From the IMG/VR virus record IMGVR_UViG_2563366997_000002: DNA of 21,588 nt; one strand, written 5' to 3'. The position numbers and the translations under genes are program-made. The DNA is from a virus (lineage: Duplodnaviria; Heunggongvirae; Uroviricota; Caudoviricetes). Shown here piece by piece: positions 2,846 to 20,495 of the stretch. A model generated the notes under the pieces. That model was not told the origin of the DNA and searched no databases. It saw nothing but the letters and a program-made list of their open reading frames with translations. How positions within the stretch are numbered: the first letter of the stretch is position 1; every line of letters starts with the position of its first letter.

Positions 2846-2856
2846 CTCCACTGGAG
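2846..2856. repeat. IS4 target-site duplication, right copy (CTCCACTGGAG)
   Basis: Exact direct repeat of 1409..1419. Confidence 0.85.
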
Positions 2857-3079: not shown

Positions 3080-3156
3080 ACCAAACTGTTTTCAAAGCTG
3101 AATGAATTGATTAAGCCAAACGTAACATATCAGGAAAAGTAGTGAAATCTTTGCCT

Positions 3157-3369
3157 TCAAGTCGCCGGGAGGTACTTGTAGATTGTTTTCACGTCCACGC
3201 CTGTCACATCAGCCACCTGCTGCCGGGTAGCGCCGTTCTCCAGCATTCTGCGGCACCGCTCCACCACTTCTTCAGTCATTATCCGGCGGCGGCCGCCGAC
3301 TCTCTCCTGCTCCATCGCTGCGGACCGACTCGGATGCATTCGGCAAATTCTAGGCCGTGATTTTTCCAA
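3157..3369 (-). pseudogene. serine DNA-invertase (Hin/Gin/Pin/Cin family) C-terminal HTH remnant
   Basis: C-terminal 45 aa, GGRRRIMTEEVVERCRRMLENGATRQQVADVTGVDVKTIYKYLPA, aligns by eye with the Hin C-terminal DNA-binding domain. The N-terminal about 140-aa catalytic domain is absent and the 5' end overlaps the upstream 266-aa gene. Confidence 0.6.
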
Positions 3370-4150
3370 TCCTCTCCATCAGATATGCCAGGATGACATC
3401 CAGTGTGCTGGTCCCATATGCATATTTGCCGGGGAAAACCAAACATTCTGACAAAACGGATGTTAACGGAGACACTGAACCATTGCCTGCTCCGCCAATA
3501 CTCATTTTTTGAGACGGGCTATACGCTGGGATTGTATAGCCCGTCACTTGTCGGCTGGTCACTGCAGACTGATCTGACCGCTGGTATGCAATTGCATAGG
3601 ATCCAGCAGCCTTGTTAGAGCACATAACTACAGCGCAGAATAAAGATTGCCCTATATTGTTAGGAGTAAATGCCAGATCGGCCTCGATCCCTCCATTCAG
3701 AAAAATCGGGAATGAACCTGCTGACGTTGTACGAATGCCGACGCCATGAGGTGTGCTTTCCTGGGTTGCGATAACCGCTCTGTCCTGTGGCGTAGCCGGA
3801 AGCGCCCCACCTGGCAGCTGATAGATGAATGCAAAAGTATTGATGTTTGCGTCCATAACCACCGCCGTATCACCAGCCATGCCGGATGCACCGGAGAAAT
3901 TAAGCCCCTGCAAAACAGAACCATTCAGCTTTGTGGATGGCTCGAGGGTCTCCAGTGACTTGAAAAGTCCGCCATCTAATCGGTTAGAGATAGCTACTAC
4001 TTTTGCACCAGACCCCATTTTTAGAAACTCTGTCTTCACTGGTGTCCATACTGATGGGGATAGTTCTGAGATCGCTTTCTCTGCCGCTGTTTGTGAGTAC
4101 ACAGGGAGTAAGGGGTTATTCAGTCCAGTTAGTGTGTAAATCAGTCTCAT
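3350..4150 (-). CDS. hypothetical protein (266 aa), probably tail-associated
   Basis: Starts 7 nt after the esterase-domain gene stop with a GAGGAT SD; Gly/Ser/Thr/Ala-rich composition. No family recognised. Confidence 0.5.
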   Translation of the reverse strand: MRLIYTLTGLNNPLLPVYSQTAAEKAISELSPSVWTPVKTEFLKMGSGAKVVAISNRLDGGLFKSLETLEPSTKLNGSVLQGLNFSGASGMAGDTAVVMDANINTFAFIYQLPGGALPATPQDRAVIATQESTPHGVGIRTTSAGSFPIFLNGGIEADLAFTPNNIGQSLFCAVVMCSNKAAGSYAIAYQRSDQSAVTSRQVTGYTIPAYSPSQKMSIGGAGNGSVSPLTSVLSECLVFPGKYAYGTSTLDVILAYLMERIGKITA

Positions 4151-4159
4151 TTTTTATCC

Positions 4160-6223
4160 TCAGAAAACGTTAATACGAAAAGCGGGGAGCCAGTCGTAAA
4201 GAGTCACGGATGTGTCATACACCCATATGATTCCAGCGGAAGATCGAACACACCCTCTTGCACCAAGAGTCCGCCCGGAAGGTTTTACAGATGCGCCGCT
4301 CTGAAGTGGGTTTTCTGCTGTCGCATAGGAAACGCGCCCAAAACGTCCAGAGGGGGCGGTCGCCAGGTTAATCAGCACGCCCTTGCCGTCCGAGCTGATC
4401 GCGATGCTCGATATAGCAGGTGGAGCACCAGTCTCATCCGTGTAGCTAAAGCCGTAATTGGCCAGACCGGAGGTGTTGATCGTAGTCGTGTCCAGCACCA
4501 GGTTCGTATACGCTGGGACATTGATTTGTATCTGCGTGGGTGAGTTCCACACGAAACTGGTCGGAACCATCCCTGACCAGCCGCTCGTAAACCACTCCTG
4601 GAGAAGCGCTCTCGCCACAGCTGCTCCGCGCCGGTTCTGGCCCGCACACGTCAAGTGCAGACCGTCTGAAATAAAATCGTACTGGTACAAACTATTGACC
4701 AGCCTGAATTGCTCTTTTCCGTGCAATCGCGTCGACGCCAGTCGCGCGTACTGGCCTGTAAATGCACCATGCCCGTCATTGACATACCCCAGCTGGGTAA
4801 TGGCGATAATCGGCGGTTCGTTTTGACCCGTTCTTGCGATGATGTCGCTGGTGATTTGTCTCTGGTACTGCCTCATCCGTGATTCATACATTCCTTCTCG
4901 TAATCCTGACCAGTCCTCGTCGGACTCTCCCTGCATCCAGTCAACGCAGAGAACAATCGGCAGCCAGCCGCGTGCTTTACAGGCCGTTACGCAGTCTTCG
5001 ATTGAATCGAGCAGATACTGATATACCTGGTTACCCCGTTTCTGGTACTCGTAAGCCTGACCAGACTGCGCACATACGATTGATAGCGTGCGCGGCATGA
5101 TTCCGGTAGCTGCAGCCATATCGCGAATGAAGGTGTTCGCGAGGCCGCTTGCGGCCGTTTCTTTATCTGTCCCACTTACTGCCTCAACCAGTGGCACCAG
5201 AGTAGTGCTGCGTGTCCCTGTACGCCTAACCCCGCCGCTGAGCATGAAAGCGTTATCAGGATATATCGGCGTTGCTGCGACAATGGTTTGATCGGCGTCA
5301 GGACAATATCCTCGAGCGTTGGATTGCCCAGCAGTCACAAAGATAAAACATACAGGCACTGTCTCTGAGTAGGGGTACACAGTAGACCCTGACAAATGAA
5401 GTCCATACTCAGGGAGCTGGTTGGCATCATCGTCGCCACCACCACCGCCATTTCCGTTATTAACAGCTACCAGGCCACCGTCTGAGTAAATCCAGTGCTT
5501 CCCACCAACCGTATAAGCTTCAACGATCTGGTTTGTGGTTGAATCAACCGTCATCCGCCACACTTTTTCACCGCCAATAAACTGCGGTATAGAACCCTCC
5601 CGGCCCAGCGCATAGAGTTCGGATTCTTGTTGGGTTAAAAGTTCGTAATATTTTCCGTCAGGACCGATTTGAATTAATCTGCCGCTTGTATTTAAAAATG
5701 GAGCCACGCGGGAAGTCTCCGGATCATATGCTGCCAGGGTCACGCTGTCTGGCGATACCTGGTATGCGTAGTCGTCACGAACCATCCGCCGTCCGGTTGG
5801 CTGCAGCGTTCCAGCGAGGTTGATATACTCATCGGCCAGAGAGCTTCCGTCCTGACTGCGGACATAGGTTGTTGAACCTGCCGGAATATTCGCAATATCC
5901 GCCTGCGCCGCCGCCAGCGTCATGTACTGCCGGCTGAGAGGGATCAGGTTTTGGCGGGCTTCATCAATAACAGCGTCGGTAGCAGCTGCCATTTTTTTAG
6001 TAGCCCCAATTATCGTATCCTGGGCGTTACCAAAACGATCTATAAAAGTATCGCTTTCGCTGTTCAGGAAATCATCGTACGCCAGGGCGTTATCATTCAG
6101 ATCCTTCATGCTATTTGAAGGTCTTGGATTGCCGGTATTATATCTTTTGTCCATACCTGTTCCTGTCTTCATCTTTTCAATGAAGCAATTAAGATTGACG
6201 CCCCGCCCCTTCAGGGCTAACAT
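4160..6223 (-). CDS. tail-region protein with SGNH/SASA-type esterase domain (putative receptor-modifying tailspike or fibre)
   Basis: Up to 687 aa. Central domain has an SGNH-hydrolase nucleophile block VTAGQSNARGY and a distal DGLH block, as in sialate-O-acetylesterase-like proteins; a fibre-like N-terminal region and a C-terminal beta-rich region flank it. The true start is probably an internal Met (6172, 6154 or 6109), because 6218..6223 overlaps the -10 element of a divergent promoter. Confidence 0.7.
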   Translation of the reverse strand: MLALKGRGVNLNCFIEKMKTGTGMDKRYNTGNPRPSNSMKDLNDNALAYDDFLNSESDTFIDRFGNAQDTIIGATKKMAAATDAVIDEARQNLIPLSRQYMTLAAAQADIANIPAGSTTYVRSQDGSSLADEYINLAGTLQPTGRRMVRDDYAYQVSPDSVTLAAYDPETSRVAPFLNTSGRLIQIGPDGKYYELLTQQESELYALGREGSIPQFIGGEKVWRMTVDSTTNQIVEAYTVGGKHWIYSDGGLVAVNNGNGGGGGDDDANQLPEYGLHLSGSTVYPYSETVPVCFIFVTAGQSNARGYCPDADQTIVAATPIYPDNAFMLSGGVRRTGTRSTTLVPLVEAVSGTDKETAASGLANTFIRDMAAATGIMPRTLSIVCAQSGQAYEYQKRGNQVYQYLLDSIEDCVTACKARGWLPIVLCVDWMQGESDEDWSGLREGMYESRMRQYQRQITSDIIARTGQNEPPIIAITQLGYVNDGHGAFTGQYARLASTRLHGKEQFRLVNSLYQYDFISDGLHLTCAGQNRRGAAVARALLQEWFTSGWSGMVPTSFVWNSPTQIQINVPAYTNLVLDTTTINTSGLANYGFSYTDETGAPPAISSIAISSDGKGVLINLATAPSGRFGRVSYATAENPLQSGASVKPSGRTLGARGCVRSSAGIIWVYDTSVTLYDWLPAFRINVF
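6195..6223 (+). promoter_or_regulatory. putative sigma70 promoter for the HTH/acyltransferase cassette
   Basis: TTGACG, 17-bp spacer, TAACAT, located 9-33 bp upstream of the first plus-strand starts. Confidence 0.4.
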
Positions 6224-6231
6224 CGCCTTAC

Positions 6232-6519
6232 GTGTTTAAACGGTTAAATAAGAGAATGATTTTAATAAATAAATACACCCCTCCAACGCAGGAAGATTTA
6301 GCCAGACTGAAATCCGCACTAAATTACTCCGGAAACCAAATGGCAGGGCTCGCAGGTGTAGCCAGCGATAGCCAATGGCGGAAATACACTGGCGGAGAGA
6401 GCCCCAGGGTAATGTCAAGACACATACTGTTTTATATTGCAGCTCAGCTTGTTCTGTCTGATGAGCAACTTAACAATGTAATAAATAAAATGCGCGATAT
6501 TGGCGCGGAGATAAAATAA
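6232..6519 (+). CDS. small XRE-like HTH protein (putative regulator), coupled to the acyltransferase
   Basis: 95 aa from a GTG start (87 aa from ATG at 6256). The segment LNYSGNQMAGLAGVASDSQWRKYTGGE resembles a Cro/C1-type helix-turn-helix. Its stop overlaps the acyltransferase start (ATAATG). AT-rich. Confidence 0.5.
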   Translation: MFKRLNKRMILINKYTPPTQEDLARLKSALNYSGNQMAGLAGVASDSQWRKYTGGESPRVMSRHILFYIAAQLVLSDEQLNNVINKMRDIGAEIK

Positions 6520-7610
6520 TGCTTGGCCTAATAAGGTTTTTTTTGGCATCGTGCGTCATTGCTTTTCACTTAACGGCTCGCATACCTGCACTTGGCAACT
6601 TTGCAGTGAATTGCTTCTATGTTATTAGTGGTTTTTTAATAACATACATTTTGCATGAAACATACAAGTTCAACTTCTCTATGTTTTGGAAAAATAGAAT
6701 ACTGAGGTTATTCCCGGCATATATATTTTTTCTCGTCATGGGCTTTCTTATTATAAAATTAATTCCATCCGCAAAGGAATTCCACTCAAACTGGACAGGC
6801 AATTTCTTACCTGGAGATTTATTAGGAAACCTCTTAATCTTCCCCTGGGCTTTCCTTTCTGATAATGCTGTAGCAAATCCATTCGGTGCCTTTTCATCCA
6901 TTTATCACTTTGCTATTGATGGTAATAGATTCAGAATAGTCACATCATCATGGTCAGTGGGTGTTGAGATAACATGTTATTTTTTATTGTGGCTTTTCAT
7001 AGCCCGAAATAAATTTACAGCCATTACGTCGATTCTGCTTTCACTGCTTTATCATGCTTACGTATATGTAGTACACCATTCTTTTGATATGGCGTATTTC
7101 CCATTCCTTGCTGCAACACTTCCTTTTAGCATGGGTTCTCTGGGTTATTTTGCCCATAGAAAGTTCAAAGCTATGTATCTTTCTCCACACAAAGCTTTTT
7201 TAATAACATTTATTTGCATCGGGATTTTTATTACCAATTGGCATTTATATACAATTAATCCATTAGGTCAGTACAACATAATACTTTACTACACCAATAA
7301 TGTAATAGCATTGTTTACAACCCTGGTATTATTAAAAATAAAGACAAACATACATCTTGAGAAAATACTCAAGTGGTTTGGTGACCTGGCCTATCCAATT
7401 TTTCTTTGTCAATATTTTGGTGGATTTCTAGCATGGCTTGCTATTGGTGGTGAAAATCGTGGCTTATCCATCTTTTTATTAGGCTACCCAATATCAATTG
7501 CACTTGGGATCGTTTGTGTAATATTAATAGACAAGCCACTAATTAAAATTAGAGCAAAAATAAGGGCGGACGCTCAAAGCAAAAATAATCAGGAAAACTC
7601 TTCAAGGTAA
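6519..7610 (+). CDS. acyltransferase family 3 (OafA/Oac-like) integral membrane O-acyltransferase
   Basis: 363 aa, strongly hydrophobic with multiple predicted TM segments. N-terminal region FHLTARIPALGNFAVNCFYVISGFLITY is typical of AT3 acyltransferases. Markedly AT-rich relative to flanks; opposite strand to the structural genes. Confidence 0.8.
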   Translation: MLGLIRFFLASCVIAFHLTARIPALGNFAVNCFYVISGFLITYILHETYKFNFSMFWKNRILRLFPAYIFFLVMGFLIIKLIPSAKEFHSNWTGNFLPGDLLGNLLIFPWAFLSDNAVANPFGAFSSIYHFAIDGNRFRIVTSSWSVGVEITCYFLLWLFIARNKFTAITSILLSLLYHAYVYVVHHSFDMAYFPFLAATLPFSMGSLGYFAHRKFKAMYLSPHKAFLITFICIGIFITNWHLYTINPLGQYNIILYYTNNVIALFTTLVLLKIKTNIHLEKILKWFGDLAYPIFLCQYFGGFLAWLAIGGENRGLSIFLLGYPISIALGIVCVILIDKPLIKIRAKIRADAQSKNNQENSSR

Positions 7611-8374
7611 ACTAAACCATTCGCTCCTTTTCCTGATGAATAGTTACCATTCCCCCCGGCACCACCTGAGCCGGGGAAACCGCCATCATCGCCAGAACTA
7701 CCGAAGTGGCCATTGCCACCCGTTGATGAAAATGCAGATCCTCCAGCCCCGCCAATAAAAGCATCAGAACCATAATACAGACCACCTTGAGATATTCCGC
7801 CAGTAATATTTAAAATGTTCCCGCCACTTCCGATACCTCCAGCAGGAACTGTAGCCCCGCCACCACTCCCTCCAGTAGCTGAGATTAAACTCCCGAACCT
7901 TGTATCACCACCATTCCCGCCTTTAGACGAGACACCAGCAGCAACAGCACTGCCACCAGTACCTATCGTCACAGATATAGTTTCGTTATCAGAAATATTA
8001 AATAACCCTTCCGAAAATCCACCAGCACAACCTCCAGATGCGCCCACACTAACTGGAGCATTCTGGCCACCTCCCCCCGCTCCCCAAACTTTCACCCGCA
8101 CTCTTTTCGTCCCTTTAGTTGGAGTGTAAGTCCCTGACTTAGTAAAGGTGACAATATTAAGCAGGCGACCGCCACCAATCGCTTTAAGAACCTGTGAATC
8201 ATCATCAGGATCAAGCTCAAGCCCCGCGCCCTCAACAACGTTTACCAGCTCACGCTGAAAGGTATTCATCATCTCAGCATTAATTATTGTCGGTGAAATA
8301 CCATTAGCGACATTACCATTAGTGTATTCACCATTAGCATCAGCGGTGTCAGTTGTACTGCCAACTTTTCTCAT
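7589..8374 (-). CDS. glycine-rich tail fibre protein
   Basis: 261 aa. N-terminus (NAEMMNTFQRELVNVVEGAGLELDPDDDSQVLKAI) resembles the conserved tail-fibre attachment domain, followed by GGxGG-rich repeats. Directly downstream of the baseplate genes. Confidence 0.65.
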   Translation of the reverse strand: MRKVGSTTDTADANGEYTNGNVANGISPTIINAEMMNTFQRELVNVVEGAGLELDPDDDSQVLKAIGGGRLLNIVTFTKSGTYTPTKGTKRVRVKVWGAGGGGQNAPVSVGASGGCAGGFSEGLFNISDNETISVTIGTGGSAVAAGVSSKGGNGGDTRFGSLISATGGSGGGATVPAGGIGSGGNILNITGGISQGGLYYGSDAFIGGAGGSAFSSTGGNGHFGSSGDDGGFPGSGGAGGNGNYSSGKGANGLVYLEEFS

Positions 8375-8400
8375 ATAAACCTTCTTTTTAAATGTCTGAA

Positions 8401-9075
8401 TTAAACGTAACCGGAAGCGATATCAAATATTTTGGCAAACTCAGGCGTGACTTCGTAAACCCCCTCATCGTTAAAACCGAAATAGATATAGCCGAATTTG
8501 ACCAGGGTGTATGAGGGGGCGAGGGCATTAATCCGGCATTCAAGCTGACGATTACCCCAGGAACGTAATGGATCGCCACAATAACTCAGACCTGCACGGG
8601 CATAAGTTATCGTTGTGTCTTCCGCCTCTACCAGCCAGACAAATGGCCAGTCATCCCCATTTAGCCCGTCACCACATACCGATAAGCCAGCACGCGCCTG
8701 CCGGTATTCCTTAATCGAAATCGTATAACCCATTGCTGCGGCAATACTGATGAAATAGCTCTTTGACTGCCCGCCGGTACTGATGAGTTTCGATACAATG
8801 TCAGACTGACGCTTCGCAATCGTATCCACTTCGCCAATCGAGCAATCATCAGGTAAGCCGAGTGTTTTTTCCCACTCGGTGAGCATAATCGTCGCAGTTT
8901 TTGGAAAGGCACCGCGCAGCAATGCAAGTGCGTCGTTATCACTTCGCTGGAAACTGGCCGCAATGGCCCGCAGTACAGCGGCCTGAACAGCTTTTGGATC
9001 CCGTGTCCACGCTCGGCCGGTGGGGATAAGCGCCTGCAGTGCCTTCTGATAATCGTCTGTTGAGAAAAGGCTCAT
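8401..9075 (-). CDS. Mu gp48-like / P2 gpI-like baseplate protein (DUF2313-type)
   Basis: 224 aa; start overlaps the upstream J-like gene stop (ATGA-type coupling); size and position match the baseplate wedge partner. Confidence 0.65.
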   Translation of the reverse strand: MSLFSTDDYQKALQALIPTGRAWTRDPKAVQAAVLRAIAASFQRSDNDALALLRGAFPKTATIMLTEWEKTLGLPDDCSIGEVDTIAKRQSDIVSKLISTGGQSKSYFISIAAAMGYTISIKEYRQARAGLSVCGDGLNGDDWPFVWLVEAEDTTITYARAGLSYCGDPLRSWGNRQLECRINALAPSYTLVKFGYIYFGFNDEGVYEVTPEFAKIFDIASGYV

Positions 9076-10220
9076 GTGTAGTTCACCTCACCACGAACAG
9101 CCAGCTCCCCAACTCCCGGCTCAATATTCGCAGAAGGCGACACAAGGATATAACCTGAAGTACCGGCAACATCCCCTATCGCACGGTTGAGATCTGAAAG
9201 GTAAATTTTCCCTGTGCCGAGCGGGTTAGCGGATTCAAACAATACCCCGTCAATCGCATCAGCAATGGCCGCAGTCGTTGCGCTGTCGGCATCAGATATC
9301 CCGCCTATTTCAAAATCGATAACGCGTTCGATGGGAGAGCAGACATAGTTAAGGGAAGTAACCGGCGCAAGCGGATACATATAATCGGCAACTCTCCCCT
9401 GATCCCCGGTGGCTTTTACAGCCCCCCACTCTTCCAGTTGAGAGACACCGTCAGTTCCTACAGGGAATCCATGATTGGTTTTATCATCGCCGTCGCACAT
9501 GATGTAAATCACCACGGTACCCGGCCCCATCCCCCGGCGCCGTATCCATGCCCTGGTAATCCCCGACACGGATAAAGCCCAGCTTTTATAATCAGTGTCA
9601 CTCCCGCCCTGCGGGGGATTCTGATACGCCAGCAGACCACGTAATCGGAAATCCTCTTCACTTTCAATGTTGGCGCCGCCGGTGGCGGGCTCAATCAGCG
9701 TAACCGAGCTGTCTATGCCGGGGGCATTAGCATCCAGTGTAAGAATGGTGCCAGCATCGGCATTTCCGGAAGCGCCTCCTCCTGTCACATCGTCTGTGAT
9801 ATCCGGCAAAACCGCTGTTACAGCAACCGACGCACTGCCAGCAGTGTTTATCGTTATGGCATCATCGGTTGTGTACTGGTAACCATCATCACGGTTTAAC
9901 ACCGCCCCTTTTGACAGTGTTTTCCCCGGCGTTCCGGTAACGGTCGCCGCCGGAGAGCGTGCTGCCGTTGCGGCTTTTCGGTAAATCTGCTTTAGCGCCA
10001 TCCATCCGGCAAGCCACTCATCGGTAGAGGTGAAAGGCGTGCTCTGACGGGCAATATAATCCAGGTAGGCGTAGTGCAGATGGGCCATGCCCGCATCCAT
10101 ATCAGCGAGCACCTTAAGGTTGCCAAACCGTAACAGCGCGCCAACACTTTCAAGCTCTGCCTGCATAAACTGGCGATTCTCCTGCCGGAGCTCGCTCAGT
10201 GTTTTCCGCTTAAATGGCAT
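9072..10220 (-). CDS. baseplate J-like protein (Mu gp47 / P2 gpJ family)
   Basis: 382 aa; size and position after the gp46-like gene; translationally coupled to both neighbours. Confidence 0.75.
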   Translation of the reverse strand: MPFKRKTLSELRQENRQFMQAELESVGALLRFGNLKVLADMDAGMAHLHYAYLDYIARQSTPFTSTDEWLAGWMALKQIYRKAATAARSPAATVTGTPGKTLSKGAVLNRDDGYQYTTDDAITINTAGSASVAVTAVLPDITDDVTGGGASGNADAGTILTLDANAPGIDSSVTLIEPATGGANIESEEDFRLRGLLAYQNPPQGGSDTDYKSWALSVSGITRAWIRRRGMGPGTVVIYIMCDGDDKTNHGFPVGTDGVSQLEEWGAVKATGDQGRVADYMYPLAPVTSLNYVCSPIERVIDFEIGGISDADSATTAAIADAIDGVLFESANPLGTGKIYLSDLNRAIGDVAGTSGYILVSPSANIEPGVGELAVRGEVNYT

Positions 10221-10659
10221 TATTCAGTTGCTCCCATAGCCAGAAGAATTTGAACTCCTGCCAGTCCCCCGCCGGCGGCAAATACCGGATGATGAGGTTC
10301 AGCCTATTCGGGAAAACAATCTCTGACTGAGCCTCTATCGCTGCTGCAATACCATCCGACTTCATCCAGGCCAGAGCCTCTTCGGCATAATCTTCAGCTC
10401 TCATCGCCACTTCGCGCGTCAGTTTTTCACGCCGCAGTAGCCACAGCCTTGAGCCAATATTCCGGTCGTTGTCCAGATCCCCCCACCAGCCGCGGCGGTC
10501 AGTTCCTTCATAATCATCATCAGCGCGCGCCAGTCCGTCAGTAAACAAACTGATAATTATGGCCGTGTGCATATCATTCTCAGATGTCAGTACGCCGTTA
10601 CCGGTTTGCCAGTCAGCATGAATGGCATCCACATCCCAGAATGAGGAAATATCACTCAT
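10210..10659 (-). CDS. Mu gp46-like baseplate protein (GP46 family)
   Basis: 149 aa, acidic, between spike and J-like genes; overlapping start and stop with neighbours. Confidence 0.65.
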   Translation of the reverse strand: MSDISSFWDVDAIHADWQTGNGVLTSENDMHTAIIISLFTDGLARADDDYEGTDRRGWWGDLDNDRNIGSRLWLLRREKLTREVAMRAEDYAEEALAWMKSDGIAAAIEAQSEIVFPNRLNLIIRYLPPAGDWQEFKFFWLWEQLNNAI

Positions 10660-11237
10660 ACCTGACTCTCTGTTTTTTCGCTTATGATCGTGCTATCGCC
10701 GGACTGAACTTTTTTAACGTCATGGTCATGATCGTTGTGAGCATCCCGCAGCGCTTTGAGCGTTGAATTGTTCGTCTCGCAGTTATCGATGATGTCACCC
10801 GTCACCAGGAGTTTGGGGGTAACCAGCTTTACCTGTTCCGTTGCCGTCGCGGTGATGTTTCTGGCATTATTGATCTCTACATCTTTGCCTTTCGCATCAA
10901 TGAAAATTCCCTCCTCGGTCAGATGAATATTCATCCCCTGCTGGTTATAGACCACGGTTTCGCCTGGCTTAAGCCCGGTATACCGGAAGCTTTGATGGTT
11001 AGAGGCAATGACGACAGGACTGGAGCGGTCCCCGCCGAGAAAGGCAATAAGCACATCCGATCCCGCCGGTAACCCCGATGAAAAACCAAAATCAGAGAGC
11101 CGTGGGGCGCTGGCCACTTCCAGCGGAGTCTGGTACTGGATTTCCTGCACAACCCCGCTATCTTTCTGCGTGGTAATACGGCCAATGCCCAGCATGCCGG
11201 CGATGCGCGTGGCCGATTTCTTTAAATTTTGATTCAT
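10656..11237 (-). CDS. baseplate spike / assembly protein V (Mu gp45, P2 gpV-like)
   Basis: 193 aa; C-terminal His-rich apex HNDHDHD as in metal-binding spike tips; position after the hub gene. Confidence 0.75.
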   Translation of the reverse strand: MNQNLKKSATRIAGMLGIGRITTQKDSGVVQEIQYQTPLEVASAPRLSDFGFSSGLPAGSDVLIAFLGGDRSSPVVIASNHQSFRYTGLKPGETVVYNQQGMNIHLTEEGIFIDAKGKDVEINNARNITATATEQVKLVTPKLLVTGDIIDNCETNNSTLKALRDAHNDHDHDVKKVQSGDSTIISEKTESQV

Positions 11238-12319
11238 TGGTTTAGTCCGGGTATTTGCTGGTAGAAAGCATAAGGCTGGACAGCGAAAGCCTCCGGGGGC
11301 ATCAGATAAAGGCGCGCATGGGTGCCGTCACTGTCTCTGATATAAGTCACCTCTGCGATAAGCAATTCGGTGTCAGGCAGCTGCAGACTCGGGATGTTGA
11401 CCGGGATAAGCGTATTCGGCTCCCATAATTTCCCGGATTTATCGCGCCAGGAATCAATCGTCACCGTTAACTGACGGGAACGGCCGTATCGGCGGTTCAT
11501 CTCCCAGTCAATCGCTCGCTGAGCCTGTTGTGAAGCCATCAGTGTACTTTCAACAATAATGATCCGTTTTCGGTAACGCATACTGGCCGCCTCAGGATCG
11601 CGGGCCGTCGCCAGCGTCACCGAATCATAAGCCGTATCTGGCGAGAATCCTGCAATCGGCGAAATGCTCATCGATACGCCGACGTAATCAGAAAAGCGGT
11701 CAGCCATCGAACGGCGGTAATAAGCCTGTTCGATATTTACCCCTTCTGCGATACCGCTGGCCGCGCGCTTTGTCCCCACCCGGGTCAGAAATAAGTTACC
11801 GTCAGGCTGATCGTAATAAAGCAATGCCGACCAGCGGGAGACACGATCAAGTATTTCCTGTGGCGATTCCCCCCAGTTCAGGGAAAATTGCGGAACTTTC
11901 ACCAGATCATCAACGTCTGTACTTACGCCAATGTTGTAATGGGATGCGAGGCGGGAGGCTATATCAAGCGCATTACTGTTATTGATGACGTTATTTGGCC
12001 ATTCAGCAGAGCAATCAACGAGATCTGCGCACTTACTGCGGCCTGAGGCTCTGACTTCATGGCGCGAACGGGAAATAGCAGGCGACCAGTCATCAACATA
12101 CCCCGTCACTACCAGGTCGTTACCAAGCTTTACCTGACAAGGCATCCCTTCCTTTACCAGCTGCTTCTGGTCACTTCCCGGAAAATAATCCATCAGTCCC
12201 AGGTCAAAATCGGAGGGAAAACGCTCAATGCCACGGGTCACCCGCACAGAGTCCCATCCTTCAATGATTTTTCCGCCCACTGTCAGGGAGACAATATCCT
12301 GATCATTATCCGTACTCAT
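11234..12319 (-). CDS. baseplate hub protein (Mu P/gp44, P2 gpD late-control-D family)
   Basis: 361 aa; size, order (hub, then spike, gp46, J) and general resemblance to the phage tail protein D family. It does not resemble a major capsid protein. Confidence 0.7.
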   Translation of the reverse strand: MSTDNDQDIVSLTVGGKIIEGWDSVRVTRGIERFPSDFDLGLMDYFPGSDQKQLVKEGMPCQVKLGNDLVVTGYVDDWSPAISRSRHEVRASGRSKCADLVDCSAEWPNNVINNSNALDIASRLASHYNIGVSTDVDDLVKVPQFSLNWGESPQEILDRVSRWSALLYYDQPDGNLFLTRVGTKRAASGIAEGVNIEQAYYRRSMADRFSDYVGVSMSISPIAGFSPDTAYDSVTLATARDPEAASMRYRKRIIIVESTLMASQQAQRAIDWEMNRRYGRSRQLTVTIDSWRDKSGKLWEPNTLIPVNIPSLQLPDTELLIAEVTYIRDSDGTHARLYLMPPEAFAVQPYAFYQQIPGLNQ

Positions 12320-12702
12320 TGTCTCAACACCTTCATCGTCGTCGGCATAAATGCCGGATGCGGTACGCTGGCCTCCTGTATCAGTTCATTTGCCCGCGAG
12401 GCATCCTGATACAGGCGGTTGGCCAGTACCAGGGCAGGAACCGGCACCGCAGTATTGATTTGCATCAACTCACTCAGTCCGGATGAAGTCTGAGCCATGG
12501 TATTCAGAAAAGCGGTTCTCACGTCCATCAATGCCGTATAAAGATCATCATCGCCACGGTCGCCCGCCAGTAGTAACGCGGTATCCAGTTGCCCGGCCAC
12601 GCGTTGAGTGATTTCTTCGGCCTCATTACGACTGGTTGGGTTGTAATCTGCAGCAGCATCCGTCATGGCTCCGGTACATAGCACTACGATCAGCGTGTTC
12701 AT
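12316..12702 (-). CDS. hypothetical protein, possibly the 3' remnant of a DNA-circulation (Mu N-like) gene
   Basis: 128 aa from the first ATG; an internal ATG at 12666 has a GGAG SD. Its stop overlaps the hub start (ATGA). It overlaps the decoration-protein ORF by 41-77 nt in another frame, consistent with a deletion junction. Confidence 0.4.
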   Translation of the reverse strand: MNTLIVVLCTGAMTDAAADYNPTSRNEAEEITQRVAGQLDTALLLAGDRGDDDLYTALMDVRTAFLNTMAQTSSGLSELMQINTAVPVPALVLANRLYQDASRANELIQEASVPHPAFMPTTMKVLRQ

Positions 12703-13135
12703 GGTGCCAGCCAGTTGCTGGCTGCTTTCGGAACGCTGGTAAAGGTGCCTGGGCGCTGTCTTTCAGGAAGATGGCCAGCGGACGTAGTGCTGTTTTCAGT
12801 TCCGGCGCAGTCCAGGAATCGTCAAAAATAATATGATTCTGGTTGAACTCGCCCATCAGGTACAGGCCGCCGGACTGATCGCCATGGGTGGAAGCGTCAA
12901 CATCATCAACCAGAATGGCCGCTGGCGTCTCGCTACCATCCGTTGCGGTTTTCACACTGGCTGTATATTTGCCACTGGCGGTGATCATGCCAAGCACAGT
13001 GCCACGCTTATACACACCGCCGGTGATCGTGCCGGTGTCAGTGACCAGTTGCAGCGTACCGGCAATTAACTGATCCGGCACAAACACTGAACTCTTCATG
13101 CCAGGTGCAAAGGCATTCTGACCAAATTGATCCAT
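12626..13135 (-). CDS. head decoration protein (lambda gpD-like) with aberrant 3' extension
   Basis: First about 125 aa fit the head-decoration pattern (...AAILVDDVD...GLYLMGEFN...LKTALRPLAIFLK). The last about 40 aa (PLPAFRKQPATGWHHEHADRSAMYRSHDGCCCRLQPNQS) look like out-of-frame read-through. Start overlaps the scaffold-like gene stop (TAATG). Confidence 0.6.
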   Translation of the reverse strand: MDQFGQNAFAPGMKSSVFVPDQLIAGTLQLVTDTGTITGGVYKRGTVLGMITASGKYTASVKTATDGSETPAAILVDDVDASTHGDQSGGLYLMGEFNQNHIIFDDSWTAPELKTALRPLAIFLKDSAQAPLPAFRKQPATGWHHEHADRSAMYRSHDGCCCRLQPNQS

Positions 13136-13725
13136 TATTTCTCTCCTTTAATGGAGTTGTAGAGGCCGGTCATCTGGTTTACCAGTGCCGATTTACCGTT
13201 CTCTTTCTTGCCGCCATCCGGATTCAGACGGACATCATGGCTTTCCTGCATGCGCTGATCGAGAGAGCGCCCGCGCGTTGCCTTTGGTTGCAAGGCTGGC
13301 GCCGTGGATGCCAGAACATCGATAGCGGCGGTAGAGCTCATCCCGGTATTGAATGCGAGTGAAGCGGCCAGTGACGGATTCGCCGCAGCGTGCTTACTGC
13401 CGAAGATACGGGCGCAACGTTTACGCTCGGCGGCGCGGGCATTTTTCACCGCTTTGCTTTCTTTGCGGTCATCGTCGCCGTCATCTTCGGAATCGTCATC
13501 GTCTTCAGCCGCATCCAGGTCGTCACCGTCATCTTCAGCGTCATCATCACGATCGTCGTTTTCCGCGTCATCTTCGCGTTCATCGTCCCCGGCATCATCT
13601 TCGCGCTCATCCTCTTCCGCGCGACGGCCTTTCGCTTTTTTGGCCTTTTTGTCCTCTTCCTCTTCGGAAGCAGTCGCGCCACGGCCAATAAGATGAGCAA
13701 AACTAAAAGTCTTTTTCTTCGCCAT
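13135..13725 (-). CDS. acidic scaffold-like head protein (Nu3 position)
   Basis: 196 aa from ATG at 13725, one nt after the protease stop; extremely D/E-rich central tract. Position between protease and decoration protein. Confidence 0.55.
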   Translation of the reverse strand: MAKKKTFSFAHLIGRGATASEEEEDKKAKKAKGRRAEEDEREDDAGDDEREDDAENDDRDDDAEDDGDDLDAAEDDDDSEDDGDDDRKESKAVKNARAAERKRCARIFGSKHAAANPSLAASLAFNTGMSSTAAIDVLASTAPALQPKATRGRSLDQRMQESHDVRLNPDGGKKENGKSALVNQMTGLYNSIKGEK

Positions 13726-13726
13726 T

Positions 13727-14593
13727 TCAGGCTCCTGTTTTTTCAAGTAAGTTTCTGAACGCAGCATCAGGAGGACACACCTCATCAGCCAGTCCAAGTT
13801 CCACACCATCAGCAGCCATAAAACAGGCAGCCTGAGTACTTTTGATAACCTTTGCGCTAATCCCCCGATTTCTGGCGACGGTATTCACAAACAATTCGCC
13901 CATGGTGTTGATGTCCTGCTGAATAGCCGCCAGCGCTTCATCTGACAGCTCTCTCAGCGGTGCCCCCTCAGCCTTACGGGAACCGTAGGTGATGATGGTG
14001 ACTTTGAGGCCGTCATCTTTTATCCGCTGGGTCCAGTCAAGGTGCATAGTGATCACACCAACTGAACCCACACCACCGGTTCGGGGAACAGAAATCCGGT
14101 CCGCCGCACTGGCAATCGCATAGGCGGCGGAATAGGCGCTTTCCGTCAGAATGGCATGGATGGGCTTTTTCCCGCGGGCGCCATAAATGACATCGACCAG
14201 ATCGAAACATCCGGCGACCTCGCCTCCTGGCGAATCAATATCCAGGCAGATCCCTGTAATATCGGGGTCTTCCATCGCAGTCAGGAAGGCCTGACGAATG
14301 CCGTCATAGCCTGTCATGCCACTGTATGGGCGCAGGCTACCCAGCTTCTGCACCAGGGTCCCACATATCGGGATGACAGCGACGCCCAACACATTGTCAT
14401 AACCCGGGTCGCTACGGGATTCCCGCCCCCTGTTATCGTCGTATCCATACCAGTCATCATCCATGGCAAGAGAGGATTCGATTTTACTGATGCCAAACCG
14501 GTCCATAACGGATGCCATGATGACTTCAGCTTTACTTGGGTGCAGCGCCAGCGGTGTATTAAAAAGGCGCTGGGCCAGATGAGGTAGATTCAC
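13727..14593 (-). CDS. head maturation protease (S49/ClpP-like, lambda gpC family)
   Basis: 288 aa; recognised by eye as the S49/ClpP-like prohead protease family by overall sequence pattern, size and position after the portal; start overlaps the portal stop. Confidence 0.85.
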   Translation of the reverse strand: MNLPHLAQRLFNTPLALHPSKAEVIMASVMDRFGISKIESSLAMDDDWYGYDDNRGRESRSDPGYDNVLGVAVIPICGTLVQKLGSLRPYSGMTGYDGIRQAFLTAMEDPDITGICLDIDSPGGEVAGCFDLVDVIYGARGKKPIHAILTESAYSAAYAIASAADRISVPRTGGVGSVGVITMHLDWTQRIKDDGLKVTIITYGSRKAEGAPLRELSDEALAAIQQDINTMGELFVNTVARNRGISAKVIKSTQAACFMAADGVELGLADEVCPPDAAFRNLLEKTGA

Positions 14594-16224
14594 TTTTCCT
14601 CCGGATCGGTAATTGTCTGGCTGGCGAACTGGTCCGCCTGCGCCCAGCTAGGTAATGGAAGTCCGCGCTTCAGGCAGGACTCAATTTCCCGCTGGCGCTG
14701 ATCAAGTATCTCTTCCCAGTCCTCACCCACGTTTTCACCCACTTCAATTTCGAGAGTGGAAAGGCCGGCATCGAGGCCGAGAATGGCGCCTTTTTTCTCT
14801 GCCACCGGATCAACCCATCCTCGCCCCGGCCCCATCCAGCGCGCACGGGAATACGCTGCCCGGGCATCAACAAAATCAGGGGCATCATTAGGTAGAGGTA
14901 AATCCTCGTTATCGTGAACTTCCTCCACAAAGGCCGTCAGAAGCGGCTGAGCGGTACCCATGGAGAAATCATCACGTCGGCGGGTGAGCGTTTTCCATGC
15001 CTCCAGCAAGGAAGATCGCGCAGAGCTGTAATTCACATCAGACCAGTCCTGTGTAACCTGCTGAGGAGATAACCCCGTACCGGATGAGAAATTACGCAAT
15101 ACTGCAGACTCGAAAACCTCAAAGTTGCTGTAAGGGCGGGCAGCGTTGACCGTTGTTATTCTCTCCCCTGGATAAAGGATCGGCATACGGGCGCCATTCT
15201 GCAGCGTCAAACGGCGATCATTATGAAACTCTGCACGACCATCCTGGTATGCTCCCAATCCCTCTTCGAAGTTTTCCCCCAGCGCGGACTGGATCATTTC
15301 GGGATCGTATGGAGACTCAATATACGCGGCGAAGATAGCATTCAGAATTGCTGCTTCCAGCTCGCTCTGGTCGTACTTCACCAGCATCTTCAGACGTTGC
15401 ACTACTGGAGTCAGAATGCCATTCCCCCGATGCTGAGCTCCACGCTCATGGTCAAAGTCGTGCACAACGTGCGGGCGCCCCCATGCGGTTTCGCGCGGGA
15501 TTCGTCGCCATGTCATTGTTTTGGCGCCACTCCACCAGTCACCGATATGTGCTTCACGTATGTGATAAGCCACAGGTGCGCCGTCAGCATCAATTTCAAC
15601 GCCGCCGCGGATATTCGGCATATCAAAATTCTGCTGCGGGTTACTGAGTCTGTCGGGATCAACAACCTGCACCGTCGTGGCATAACGCCCCTTACCTGGT
15701 CCAAGGCGATCGGTGCGATACTGAAGCACCATCAGGGCATCGCCATCAATCAGCTTGTGGCGAAAGGCCAGACGCAACATTTGTGGAACGGTTAGCTTGC
15801 GCTCAACGTCACAATAACGGCCTGTGTCGTATGCCCAGGTTCTCCAGTGGGAAGCGAGTGCTTTTCCGTACTCTTCCGCCCATACTGCGTCAAAACTTTT
15901 ATTACCTGTCATCATCCGTAATACACGATAGTCAGGCTTCATGATCGGACGGAAATTGGCGCCGACCGCATTATCAAGCAGGCGAGTTATGGCACCATTG
16001 GCCCATCCATCATTTCGGACCAGATCCCGCGCACGGGAAACTATACGGTCACGGTAGATATTAATTTCGTTATCCGGTGACCATAGTGCGGGCTGCCAGT
16101 TCGCCAGTTGATCGCTGAAGGAATCCCCGGCGTCATATGGCACCCGGCTACCGCCCGTCAACATGCTGGGTTTTGGTGCCTGATAAGGTCTCCCGTCAGG
16201 ACCAAGGATTTGCACTTTATTCAT
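14590..16224 (-). CDS. portal protein (lambda gpB family)
   Basis: 544 aa; size and position between gpW-like and protease genes. Confidence 0.9.
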   Translation of the reverse strand: MNKVQILGPDGRPYQAPKPSMLTGGSRVPYDAGDSFSDQLANWQPALWSPDNEINIYRDRIVSRARDLVRNDGWANGAITRLLDNAVGANFRPIMKPDYRVLRMMTGNKSFDAVWAEEYGKALASHWRTWAYDTGRYCDVERKLTVPQMLRLAFRHKLIDGDALMVLQYRTDRLGPGKGRYATTVQVVDPDRLSNPQQNFDMPNIRGGVEIDADGAPVAYHIREAHIGDWWSGAKTMTWRRIPRETAWGRPHVVHDFDHERGAQHRGNGILTPVVQRLKMLVKYDQSELEAAILNAIFAAYIESPYDPEMIQSALGENFEEGLGAYQDGRAEFHNDRRLTLQNGARMPILYPGERITTVNAARPYSNFEVFESAVLRNFSSGTGLSPQQVTQDWSDVNYSSARSSLLEAWKTLTRRRDDFSMGTAQPLLTAFVEEVHDNEDLPLPNDAPDFVDARAAYSRARWMGPGRGWVDPVAEKKGAILGLDAGLSTLEIEVGENVGEDWEEILDQRQREIESCLKRGLPLPSWAQADQFASQTITDPEEK

Positions 16225-16487
16225 CAGAATCTGAACCTCACTGGCTTCCGTGGCCGGGCGACAATTCCCAGTTGCGCCTGCAGCAACTGAATCAGCGCCA
16301 GCAGGTCGGCGAGAGAGCTTTGCTGATAGGAGACAGAGCGCGTCCCATCACCCTGCGTATAGGAGAATGAGACGCCACGGCTGCCGGTAGTCAGGTCGAT
16401 ATAAGCCTGCTGCGCTTTCTGCAGAGCGTCTCTGAGCTGCTCATCAGTCATCCCACCAGCAAGTAAGCTCGTGTTTCGGTTAAACAT
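16224..16487 (-). CDS. head-tail joining protein (lambda gpW-like)
   Basis: 87 aa (75 aa from the internal Met); small protein between terminase large subunit and portal, as in lambda. Confidence 0.7.
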   Translation of the reverse strand: MFNRNTSLLAGGMTDEQLRDALQKAQQAYIDLTTGSRGVSFSYTQGDGTRSVSYQQSSLADLLALIQLLQAQLGIVARPRKPVRFRF

Positions 16488-16495
16488 GGTTTTCC

Positions 16496-18628
16496 TTATT
16501 GCGGCAGGAGTTTAGAAATGTTCTTACGCTTAACAGGAGCCATAGCCTCATCCACGATGGCACCCGGTAATTCGTAATTGATTTTTTCTTCTGGCTCGGC
16601 TGGCGCCGGCAGGAACTTATCGGGATCGGCCTGAAGGTTAGCGGCCCGAACATTGAGTTTTAATCCCATATGTTTCAGCCCACACAACGCGGCATAGCTG
16701 TAAACGAGGCAGTCGAGTGCTTCGTTCGCCCGTCCGGGGATAGGCTCCCAGACACTGAATCGCTGACCGGCCACCACTTTATAAACCAGTCGCTCGGCCA
16801 GCAGCTGGTTGAAATAGCCGAGGTCACGATCATCCGGGAAGTGCATATAGCCCGCACCGGCAGTACCTAAAGCTGGCGGTTCAAGATGCAGACGACCACG
16901 GACAACATCTTTCGCAGAGTTCACGCCAAGTATAATTGGCCTGAAGCTGGCTTTACTTTTTGATGTCGGTCGCTTGGTTGGCCAGACGGGGTTGCGTTTC
17001 CCACCCTGCGCAGATTCGCCCTTGATAGCCCAGACGCGGCGCCCAAGGCGATCTTTGCAGAACTCATAAACCTTTTGCGTGTGGTGACCGCCGGAGTCCA
17101 TACATGCAGCCAGAATATTCAGCCCTCGCCCGTCGCCGCGTCGCCATATCTGTTTCAGGTACGCATCGAGGCGCTTCCAGGGTTCCTCAGTCTCCAGATC
17201 GCCATAAATGACGTCATGCGCAACTGACCACGATTCCTCGTCCCGCCCCCAGCCAGTGATCGTGATTTCGAATCGGTCATCCTGAGTATCGACGCCCGCA
17301 GTTAACAATGCCACGCCATCAGGAACGACGGCCGGGAAGACTTCACGGCGCGCCAGCAGGACATCAACCGGGAGCTGTTTCCCGTGGTTAGGCCGGTGCG
17401 GCAACCCCATCTGGGTGTTCCACCAGGCCTGTTCCTTATCCGGATCCCCTTTCGCATCGAGGTATTTCTTTGCAATGTCCGATGGCTTGTCTTTTTGCCA
17501 GGGACTGAAGAGTTTTGACGCCTGGTACCCGGCGTGGTGATTATCCAGCGCCTCGGCCCCGCAGTCCGGGCAAATCGCCCGGTATACGGCATGCCGTTCC
17601 GACTCTGACCAGCGCCAGACGGCATCAACACTGCCCTCGTCTCCTTCATGCCATTTCTGGTCGTATTCCATTAATGGTGAATGGCGGGAACCACAACATT
17701 CAAACGGTTTGGTCTGATGCCAGCGGATTGTCTGTAATGCCCGCAGACGCTCACCCTCTGACCAGCCAGCACCACAACATTCACAATGGATCATGGCCGC
17801 TTTGGTCAGGTGCTTATCACCTTCTTTTGGCCATTGAACATGTTTGAAGAAATCAAGGAACTGTCGGTGCCCGCAATGGGGGCAAACTACAGAGGCCCGC
17901 CGCTGATCTGAATCTTCGTAACTGTCAGCAATCCGGCTTTCATCTTCGATCGTCGGCGAACAAGCCCGCACGGACAGCCAGTTAAGGCCAAATGTGGCGG
18001 TTCGCTCTTCCGCCAGAGCGATGGGATCGCCCTCACGGGTAATCGGATATTTATCCACCTCATCTGCCAGCAGAACACGGATCGGACGGCGCGCAAGGTT
18101 ATCTGGACTACCGGCGCCGGCCAGCGCCAGAAATCCGCCGGTGAAAGCTTTATACAGAATGGTTTCTTTTGAACTCTTCTGCTTTGAGTCACCTATGATG
18201 TTACGCAGAACTGGCGTTACCCTAACCAGCGGGCTGATGCGTTCTTTGGAAAACTGCTCAGCGGCCTCTTCCTTCGGCTGCAGGAGCAAAATCGGACATG
18301 GGTCGAGGTGCGCAAAATAACCAAACAGGTTTTCCAGCAGCGCGGTTTTCATTAACTGGGTACAGCACATCACGGTGATAATGTGGACGCCCGATTCCGT
18401 CGCGGCCAGCATAGGACCGCGGGCAATTTCAACCGTTGATGTTTCCCAGTTCCCGGAGGTACTGCCAGCTTCTTTCGCCAGCTTCCGGTAGTCATCGGCC
18501 CATTGCGGGACGCTGATCCGCGGCGGCGGTGTCCACCCTTTCCGGACACTCAGTTGAAGACGCTCAATCTTCCGCTGGGTTAAACTCTGGTTCTCCGAGG
18601 ACTGAGATATGTTTGTGGACATGTTCAA
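16496..18628 (-). CDS. terminase large subunit (lambda gpA family)
   Basis: 710 aa; contains the VDTQDDRFEITITGWGRDEESW segment I recognise from gpA-type terminases; 5' end overlaps the small-subunit gene as in lambda. Confidence 0.9.
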   Translation of the reverse strand: MNMSTNISQSSENQSLTQRKIERLQLSVRKGWTPPPRISVPQWADDYRKLAKEAGSTSGNWETSTVEIARGPMLAATESGVHIITVMCCTQLMKTALLENLFGYFAHLDPCPILLLQPKEEAAEQFSKERISPLVRVTPVLRNIIGDSKQKSSKETILYKAFTGGFLALAGAGSPDNLARRPIRVLLADEVDKYPITREGDPIALAEERTATFGLNWLSVRACSPTIEDESRIADSYEDSDQRRASVVCPHCGHRQFLDFFKHVQWPKEGDKHLTKAAMIHCECCGAGWSEGERLRALQTIRWHQTKPFECCGSRHSPLMEYDQKWHEGDEGSVDAVWRWSESERHAVYRAICPDCGAEALDNHHAGYQASKLFSPWQKDKPSDIAKKYLDAKGDPDKEQAWWNTQMGLPHRPNHGKQLPVDVLLARREVFPAVVPDGVALLTAGVDTQDDRFEITITGWGRDEESWSVAHDVIYGDLETEEPWKRLDAYLKQIWRRGDGRGLNILAACMDSGGHHTQKVYEFCKDRLGRRVWAIKGESAQGGKRNPVWPTKRPTSKSKASFRPIILGVNSAKDVVRGRLHLEPPALGTAGAGYMHFPDDRDLGYFNQLLAERLVYKVVAGQRFSVWEPIPGRANEALDCLVYSYAALCGLKHMGLKLNVRAANLQADPDKFLPAPAEPEEKINYELPGAIVDEAMAPVKRKNISKLLPQ

Positions 18629-19127
18629 TCAGCACCTCTGTCATCCTGTCCGCCGGCACATTCAGATCGGCGGCTATCAGCGGTGCCACGCGTGAAGGCC
18701 AGTTCAGCCAGGCATCACGCTGCTGGCGAAAGGCGTTAAACAGAACCTCCTCGGCGATGGCCAATTCAATTGTCTGGCCGCTGTCTTTTTCATACTGGAG
18801 CTTTGCCTGCAGGGCCATGTAATTTTCACGGATCCGCGCGGCCTCTTCCCTGGAAAGGACTGCACCTTCTGTAAGCATTATCTGGCGAACGGTTTCATCA
18901 ATTTCATCGTCGCCATCATTCCGGGGTGCTGGGGCTTTTTTCTTCTTCGCGTTTGATGCCCGCGGATCTTTTCCATCACGGTTTTTCTTCAGCGCGGCAT
19001 CGCTCGCCTCAACATCAATCAGGTCGCCATCCATGACGATAAACCGACCAGCCTTGATCCATCGGCCAATAGTCTTGCGATCGACGCCTGAATGTTGCGC
19101 GTACTGACTCTGGTTCATCGTGGTCAT
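18564..19127 (-). CDS. terminase small subunit (lambda Nu1-like)
   Basis: 187 aa; N-terminal HTH-like segment (DRKTIGRWIKAGRFIV) like Nu1; immediately downstream of a repeat-rich putative cos region. Confidence 0.8.
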   Translation of the reverse strand: MTTMNQSQYAQHSGVDRKTIGRWIKAGRFIVMDGDLIDVEASDAALKKNRDGKDPRASNAKKKKAPAPRNDGDDEIDETVRQIMLTEGAVLSREEAARIRENYMALQAKLQYEKDSGQTIELAIAEEVLFNAFRQQRDAWLNWPSRVAPLIAADLNVPADRMTEVLIEHVHKHISVLGEPEFNPAED

Positions 19128-19273
19128 GGGACATCACCTGGGACATTTTTGGGGTGGGACATTTACCTGGGACATTTTTTCAATGTCCCACACGAATGTC
19201 CCACTGGAATAAATGGAATAATCCGTGCTGGCTCTGGCGTGGCTGGCGATCCCTTGGGGTGGGACATGGGACA
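19128..19273. repeat. putative cosB-like terminase-binding repeat cluster (TGGGACAT motif)
   Basis: TGGGACAT direct copies at 19139, 19155, 19168 and 19260 (plus GGGACAT at 19128), and inverted copies ATGTCCCA at 19183 and 19196, all within 150 bp upstream of the small-terminase start. Confidence 0.45.
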
Positions 19274-19374
19274 CAAAATAAAAGTTTGTAGCTAGGAAAA
19301 CACTGCGGCGCGCAATGCCCGTGCCTTACAAAAGTCTCAGGAAGGACCCAAACCCTATGGGGTAGGTATTCAGG

Positions 19375-19899: not shown

Positions 19900-20495
19900 C
19901 TTTTGCGCTGCGGCGATATCAGCGTGGTTATGTACCAGGTAATCCGTGTGTTGGTGTCGATAAGTTTCCTAAACCCCAGCGCGACCGCTACATAACTGAT
20001 GAAGAGTACATAGCTATCTTCACTCATGCGACACCTGCAGTTAAAGCCGCGATGGAAATTGCGTATCTTTGCGCTGCAAGGGTATCTGATGTTCTTAAAA
20101 TGAACTGGAATCAGATTCTTGATAAAGGAATTTTCATACAGCAAGGTAAAACTGGTATTAAACAGATCAAAGCCTGGACTGAGCGTCTTAGTGCGGCTGT
20201 GGATATTTGCAGGGAATGGGGACAGGATGGCCCTGTTATCAGGACAATGTATGGTGAGCGTTATTCATACAAGGGATTTAATGAAGCATGGAGAAAAGCG
20301 AGAAACGCGGCTTCTGAAGAACTTGGTAGGCCACTTGATTGCACCTTCCATGATCTAAAGGCTAAAGGGATCTCAGACTATGAAGGATCTGGCAGGGATA
20401 AGCAAAAATTCAGTGGTCATAAGACAGAATCACAGGTACTTGTTTACGACAGGAAAGTTAAAATCAGCCCAACGTTGAACAAGAAAATGAGATGA
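19893..20495 (+). pseudogene. tyrosine integrase, catalytic C-terminal domain only (5'-truncated)
   Basis: 200-aa ORF with an integrase catalytic-domain pattern (HDLKAKGISD ... SGHKTESQVLVYDR with the nucleophile Tyr). The frame is closed by a stop at 19860..19862 and no upstream frame encodes an integrase N-terminal domain. Ends 112 bp from the tRNA 3' end. Confidence 0.8.

Follow-up and report, generated by a model that had tools for sequence, protein, structure and literature searches.

A very probable deletion scar between head decoration and DNA circularization genes in a defective prophage of the Escherichia coli HS lineage

Late genes of the prophage remnant

The window, i.e., the whole stretch of 21,588 nucleotides analyzed here, is the E. 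coli HS chromosome (NC_009800.1, positions 2062900-2083050) bar a single SNP, at window position 14076, and one insertion of 1,437 bp, at window positions 1420-2856. It carries a prophage remnant that adjoins tRNA-Ser and mtfA and has its late operon on the minus strand. The operon runs from a terS-like gene through terL, gpW, portal, S49 protease, an acidic scaffold-like gene, an ORF of 169 aa and another of 128 aa to the baseplate hub gene, which is followed by gp45-, gp46-, gp47/J- and gp48/YmfQ-like baseplate genes and then by a glycine-rich tail protein. Three of these genes serve as landmarks in what follows:

18564-19127, minus strand: terS-like gene, first in the late-operon order
13135-13725, minus strand: acidic scaffold-like gene of 196 aa, intact, directly upstream of the decoration gene, with a TAATG overlap
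11234-12319, minus strand: baseplate hub gene, Mu gpP/gp44-like, 361 aa, intact (Pfam GpP-like_1st, Gp44-like_2nd and GpP_4th)

We took as intact reference the prophage of E. coli W21 (NZ_CP163122.1; locus L001), using blastn and a base-by-base three-way comparison. This prophage has 99% DNA identity to the remnant and is integrated beside yecE with a different integrase. The Citrobacter phage phiNP (OR565852.1), a cultured phage with contractile-tailed virions (PMC6456863), was used for synteny only. In both relatives the late genes have the same order as in the remnant (terL, gpW, portal, S49 protease, scaffold and a decoration protein of 135 aa, then, further on, DNA circularization, hub and gp45/46/47/48-like baseplate genes), but they keep 10 genes between decoration and hub, and their decoration and circularization genes are of full length. 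The scaffold-like gene is identical in length and position in W21 and phiNP. Actually, the approximately 13 kb of late genes retained in the window are free of frameshifts and stops and their ORF lengths are as in W21, which could mean that the deletion described below is recent or that there is some selection for retention.

The region between the scaffold-like and hub genes had been singled out in a first-pass annotation as the probable scar of a deletion (window positions 12600-12770), in part by the way in which the genes overlap. The 169-aa ORF overlaps the next minus strand ORF, in another frame, by 77 nt if the latter starts at the ATG at 12702 or by 41 nt from the RefSeq start at 12666, in agreement with the 41-77 nt given there. 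That every other junction of the operon is tight holds for the most part, since overlaps of 1-4 nt (ATGA, GTGA, TAATG, TGATG) or gaps of 1-8 nt predominate, but gp46 and gp47 overlap by 11 nt and terS and terL by 59 nt. The last overlap is also found in the intact W21 prophage and is thus native, so that a long overlap alone is not diagnostic of a scar.

Several features of the remnant are worth describing in their own right. The gene at the scaffold position (window 13135-13809, minus strand) contains a very acidic low-complexity stretch with runs of D and E; its mechanically called ORF, of 224 aa, begins upstream of the start given in the annotation (196 aa) and reaches into the protease gene, and the weak Pfam match of its product to 'Nop14' is compositional. 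Mosaic boundaries relative to the W21 prophage delimit window positions 1-5883 and 18771-19280. The distal tail-spike region, with a protein of 687 aa that has a sialate O-acetylesterase domain (4160-6223) and an ORF of 266 aa (3350-4150), is devoid of a W21 counterpart. The same applies to the 5' part of the terS-like gene, whose product has 187 aa in the window and 166 aa in W21. A gene for a membrane acyltransferase of 363 aa (window 6519-7610, plus strand) is embedded between the tail genes on the opposite strand, and has been kept in W21 and in an independent remnant of the same phage type (L007, see below). It may be an O-antigen-modifying gene of lysogenic conversion, in which case it could explain the retention of that end of the remnant.

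The insertion at 1420-2856 corresponds to an IS4-family element of 1,426 bp that interrupts a hypothetical gene and is flanked by a target duplication of 11 bp, CTCCACTGGAG. Its transposase, of 442 aa, has Nterm_IS4 and DDE_Tnp_1 domains, and its first approximately 130 nt reach at best approximately 97% identity to other IS4 copies. The insertion at this site was found neither in NC_009800.1 nor in any of the complete E. coli genomes searched.

Two broken genes at positions 12740/12741

The features found around the anomalous overlap are the following:

12626-13135, minus strand: chimeric ORF of 169 aa, codons 1-131 of a lambda gpD-type decoration gene and codons 132-169 of out-of-frame circularization gene
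12740-12741, no strand: deletion junction with a microhomology of 2 nt, from blastn against the W21 prophage and the three-way base comparison
12316-12741, minus strand: 3' 426 nt of a Mu N/gp43-type DNA circularization gene (codons 326-466 plus stop), from the comparison with W21
12316-12702, minus strand: ORF of 128 aa, residues 339-466 of the circularization protein with an internal Met start, from the comparison with the intact protein

The 169-aa ORF is labeled 'head decoration protein' in RefSeq and matches the Pfam profile HDPD (PF02924, lambda gpD) over residues 20-121 (E=1.9e-22, 80.0 bits versus a gathering cut-off of 29.1, profile positions 9-112 of 116). As in lambda, the gene comes after those of the protease and the scaffold. 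When aligned to seven intact decoration proteins, its homology runs to ...AIFLKDSAQAPL, residue 131, and stops there. The break in the family pattern noticed in the first-pass annotation is therefore real, but it lies seven residues beyond the AIFLK at which it had been placed, and the atypical extension, estimated there at about 40 residues, comprises 38, PAFRKQPATGWHHEHADRSAMYRSHDGCCCRLQPNQS, before the stop codon. The intact W21 protein, of 135 aa, ends instead in ...AIFLKDSAQAPLTTS (...APLTTS and stop), while the 38-aa tail is obtained verbatim when the circularization gene of W21, which is intact, is translated in another frame. Compared with gpD, then, the last three native residues have been swapped for 38 frame-shifted ones. 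Decoration proteins of the gpD type form trimers that bind and stabilize the capsid, whereas in the remnant there is no major capsid protein left to bind.

A search of 5.8 billion proteins gave 446 homologues of this ORF. In all of the 120 listed the alignment ended at approximately residue 132 (for almost every one of them, at 78-79% of the query), and a length of 132-135 aa was shared by nearly all of these 120. None of the 120 listed contained the 38-aa tail, so that homologues sharing the full C-terminal extension, which would have spoken for a native protein, did not appear among them. The length (132-135 aa) and the C-terminus (...QAP(L/V)xxS) that are typical of the subfamily are thus both lacking in the 169-aa ORF. 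Regarding its position, which in the family is between scaffold/protease and major capsid, the upstream neighbors are present and the capsid gene is absent. One of the listed homologues (P0082, 162 aa) is itself a deletion chimera from another genome, in which approximately 53 N-terminal residues of the S49 protease precede the decoration sequence from about residue 28 onward, so that the scaffold gene has been lost there.

The 128-aa ORF sits directly upstream of the gp44/gpP hub gene, to which it is joined by an ATGA overlap (12316-12319), the hub being the first complete gene downstream of the scar. This is the place where the intact relatives have the DNA circularization gene, as the first-pass annotation had recognized, although the comparison with W21 takes the identification a step further: the ORF itself is what remains of that gene. 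The remnant retains 141 in-frame codons, approximately 30% of the gene, and the promoter-proximal 325 codons, including the DNA_circ_N domain, are gone. Its DNA is 100% identical to W21 over the terminal 493 bp. The intact W21 protein has PF07157 (DNA_circ_N) at residues 24-117 (E=2.6e-31), while no Pfam match, this one included, was found in the 128-aa ORF. In RefSeq a shorter version, of 116 aa with the start at 12666, appears as 'hypothetical protein'.

Protein comparisons agree with this origin. When 1.84 billion representatives were searched exhaustively with HMMER, there were 1,545 matches at E<=1e-3, most of these being proteins of 420-490 aa that were aligned at their extreme C-terminus (the last approximately 115-125 residues). 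The ORF therefore has the C-terminal homology of the circularization family and not its full length of approximately 420-495 aa. In 11 of 11 phage records the match fell at the 3' end of annotated DNA circularization or circulation genes, and in phiNP the protein identity over the ORF was 68.8%. A profile built from 50 full-length relatives aligned with Mu protein N (PDB 9ki1) over residues 25-485 of 495 (profile positions 26-450, E=9e-38). The intact W21 allele and the family as a whole thus align with Mu N/gp43 along nearly the entire length, and in Mu as well the gene is directly upstream of a gp44-type hub. The window, in contrast, keeps only the last 141 codons and has lost the defining N-terminal domain. 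The alignment to the C-termini of Mu N and gp43 that had been proposed as a check on the ORF gave, accordingly, the extreme end of proteins of 420-490 aa.

We also considered whether the 128-aa ORF could be a complete family that stands alone. A word-indexed protein search had returned just 20 short proteins and none of full length, but this reading fell when the short proteins proved to start at differing internal points and the exhaustive HMMER search was dominated by full-length proteins. A minority of the HMMER matches were of approximately 186-190 aa. In a metagenomic locus (L006, positions 5138-6561; JGI metagenome 3300031595) the circularization gene is split into a DNA_circ_N ORF of 288 aa and an ORF of 186 aa with an overlap of 4 nt, and the many representatives of approximately 187 aa suggest either a natural variant that recurs or a frameshift that is conserved. 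The HS ORF was rejected as a split-form gene: the window has no N-terminal partner, the ORF aligns only from approximately residue 60-75 of the ~186-aa proteins, it begins some 46-59 residues inside this C-terminal module, and its DNA is that of the unsplit W21 gene.

That a C-terminal ORF of approximately 186 aa exists as a separate gene in some lineages, together with the intactness of all the retained genes, could nevertheless be taken to indicate that the modules of a satellite-like or domesticated element meet here natively and functionally, in which case the extended decoration protein and the short circularization protein would be real products. We regard this as improbable in the extreme. 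The short ORF of L006 directly follows its 288-aa DNA_circ_N partner and starts approximately 46-59 residues earlier, the tail of the HS decoration ORF is frame-shifted circularization sequence present in none of the homologues listed, and the remnant DNA is 100% identical to the matching part of an intact gene of 466 codons. Besides, the element has no capsid gene, sheath, tube, tape measure, lysis genes or whole integrase.

Two other truncations of circularization genes were detected. In L007 (position 7973; GCA_902840395.1, CADGFX010000035.1), the independent remnant mentioned above, a recE/recT/integrase block is joined directly to approximately codon 298, 82 bp from the HS endpoint, and the same baseplate, fiber and acyltransferase genes follow with 99% identity. 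In L009 (positions 5405-5893; a Logan contig of SRR17854599, protein P0122), 43 unrelated N-terminal residues are joined at approximately codon 348 and the fusion adjoins a large serine recombinase and TMP and Dit genes of siphovirus type; an insertion or a chimeric contig could account for it. A deletion hot spot around these three endpoints (approximately codon 298 in L007, 326 in HS and approximately 348 in L009) was considered and found unsupported, as the cases were ascertained using the fragment as query. The HS-type truncation is the only one among 5,426 complete E. coli genomes.

At the DNA level, window positions 5883-12741 correspond to L001 5334-12192 (99.0% identity by blastn) and window positions 12740-18770 to L001 20005-26035 (98.9%). 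Absent from the window is L001 12193-20004, 7,812 bp. Comparison with the intact W21 prophage at the DNA level thus gave a single breakpoint, 12740/12741, found independently of the range in which the scar had been predicted and located inside it. The two alignments overlap by 2 bases, 'TA', present in each parental flank, and past them each flank diverges fully from the other parent save for an imperfect TGGT(T)A resemblance. The junction falls on the second base of decoration codon 132 and on the first of circularization codon 326, and as a consequence the two frames are out of register.

The missing segment contains what the first-pass annotation had supposed to be lost in one deletion, the genes from capsid to tape measure, and this supposition is supported by the 7,812 extra bp of W21. 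Starting from the decoration gene, the window lacks its final three codons and stop (of 135 aa in W21); the major capsid gene, which both W21 and phiNP have; three head completion or connector genes (two small hypothetical ones and one labeled 'ATP-binding'), plus a DUF2635 gene; the genes for tail sheath, tail tube and tail assembly chaperone; a gene of 1,854 nt in the tape-measure position; and codons 1-325 of the 466-codon circularization gene, i.e., 70% of it. Putting the segment back restores both broken genes in frame, a decoration protein of 135 aa and a circularization protein of 466 aa with its PF07157 N-terminal domain. Because phiNP has the same order with all the missing genes, the change is a loss in the HS lineage and not a gain in W21. 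When the deleted segment was searched by megablast against 50,697 phage records, phiNP was the only match (74.5% identity over the sheath and tube genes).

The three-way comparison revealed no inserted or foreign DNA, IS end or target duplication at 12740/12741. In the intact sequence, the only direct or inverted repeats up to 150 bp from the two breakpoints were 8-9-mers, off the breakpoints and no longer than in shuffled sequence, and repeat-mediated homologous recombination was dropped on these grounds. Deletion by a mobile element (IS-adjacent), a site-specific recombinase or homologous recombination between repeats is for the same reasons highly improbable, in spite of the IS4 copy in the window and of the serine recombinase gene that accompanies the differently truncated circularization gene of L009: the longest direct repeats, of 8-9 nt, are of chance length, the IS4 copy lies at a distance of 10 kb, and NC_009800.1 has the scar but lacks this copy. 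In W21, neither breakpoint has an IS or a recombination site.

Distribution of the junction and a second scar

We compared window positions 11200-14600 by megablast with 5,426 complete E. coli genomes. Full-length matches were found in 6 of them, four HS assemblies and two O9:H10 pig isolates. In many other genomes, that of W21 among them, the match covers only the part from window position 12737 onward, and the record has a further match at some distance. The two sides of the junction are contiguous in 6 complete assemblies and lie apart in 17. The circularization gene is of full length in 18 genomes and truncated only in the six with the scar, always at the same base. Since the junction is contiguous in six complete assemblies belonging to two strain groups, it is not an artefact of assembly. 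Sequencing error can be set aside on the same evidence, the identical junction in four independent HS assemblies and in the two pig isolates; we found no point in favor of an artefact of either kind, to which we assign a negligible probability.

A second junction is found at the other end of the late operon:

19917-19920, no strand: second deletion junction, 4 nt common to both parents, from the comparison with W21 and strain 13P484A

To its left is the hypothetical gene that W21 has upstream of terS, minus the first 31 codons, and to its right a tyrosine integrase beside tRNA-Ser, minus the first 132 codons. W21 was discarded as reference for the integrase side, its prophage being at yecE with a different integrase, and strain 13P484A was used, which has the whole integrase (324 aa) at this tRNA-Ser site. 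Missing at the second scar are the genes for lysis, regulation and replication, together with the N-terminus of the integrase. The junction is carried by the same six genomes.

This second scar bears on the question of whether the main junction originated in one step. At least one other independent deletion took place in the remnant (19917-19920), related remnants elsewhere carry different deletions, repeated erosion being normal for this phage type, and one final junction would look the same after one event or several nested ones. Two or more successive nested deletions are however unlikely to have produced the junction at 12740/12741. Among the 5,426 complete genomes no intermediate deletion states were found, only 18 intact copies and 6 with the 7,812-bp deletion, and one event is more parsimonious.

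Origin and fate of the remnant

Taken together, the region is very probably a deletion scar in a defective prophage at tRNA-Ser near mtfA in the E. coli HS lineage. It would descend from a temperate myovirus in which a head module of lambda type (terminase, gpW, portal, S49 protease, scaffold, gpD-like decoration and major capsid) was combined with a contractile tail and baseplate of Mu type, an organization also found in the viable phage phiNP. One illegitimate recombination would then have removed the 7,812 bp, from three codons before the decoration stop to circularization codon 325. This event is considered RecA-independent in type because the ends share only the 2-nt 'TA', with the imperfect TGGT(T)A around it, and the joining, by replication slippage or end joining, would have been at the level of microhomology. 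Such an illegitimate joining in a single event is the most likely course, although 2 nt of microhomology are near chance level and we infer the mechanism only from the absence of repeats and IS ends.

Because the frames on the two sides of the junction do not agree, a ribosome on the decoration gene would run for 38 nonsense codons into the circularization gene and stop at 12626. The in-frame 3' third of the latter survives as an ORF that has two internal starts, 12702 and 12666, hence the unusual overlap of 41-77 nt. Neither the chimeric nor the truncated product is likely to have a function. Judging by its gene content the element cannot make capsids or tails. It would also be immobile, because the second scar removed the genes for lysis, regulation and replication and half of the integrase. 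Since it lacks a complete integrase and the genes for capsid, tail, lysis, regulation and replication, we would describe it as a locked, non-productive remnant.

There is prior evidence that fits this description. 'Two prophage remnants' have been reported in E. coli HS (bioRxiv 10.64898/2026.05.19.726188, 2026 preprint), and after mitomycin C induction of this strain coverage of virion-protected DNA was obtained only for two complete prophages (bioRxiv 10.64898/2026.05.19.726188).

The erosion of prophages through short-homology deletions is well established. Cryptic prophages of E. coli have decayed, like the HS remnant, by internal deletions in which essential structural, lysis and regulatory genes were lost, and share with it truncated and fused ORFs, a tRNA anchor and a truncated integrase. 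Specific to the HS case are the exact breakpoints and the fact that RefSeq calls the scar ORFs ordinary proteins and not pseudogenes.

It might be argued that the remnant has been kept as something useful, either because the baseplate or head assembly of incoming related phages is poisoned, in a dominant-negative manner, by the circularization fragment or by the extended decoration protein, or because the baseplate, fiber and acyltransferase genes are a domesticated block. In the intact protein, the fragment is the portion next to the product of the hub gene, and the stop-free ~13 kb of late genes and the start of L007 in the same part of the circularization gene, 82 bp away, are compatible with this idea, L007 having been found by a search biased toward circularization fragments. 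We consider such a role very unlikely.

What we describe is, in our reading, ordinary prophage decay and no new system or biology. In terms of annotation, both scar ORFs are artefacts of deletion that should be treated as pseudogenes; as they stand, they seed spurious protein clusters. The two junctions (12740/12741 and 19917-19920) provide a clean marker, exact to the base, for the HS/O9:H10 lineage, and the scar documents with the same precision how a prophage of E. coli HS, a commensal strain in wide use as a model, was disabled.
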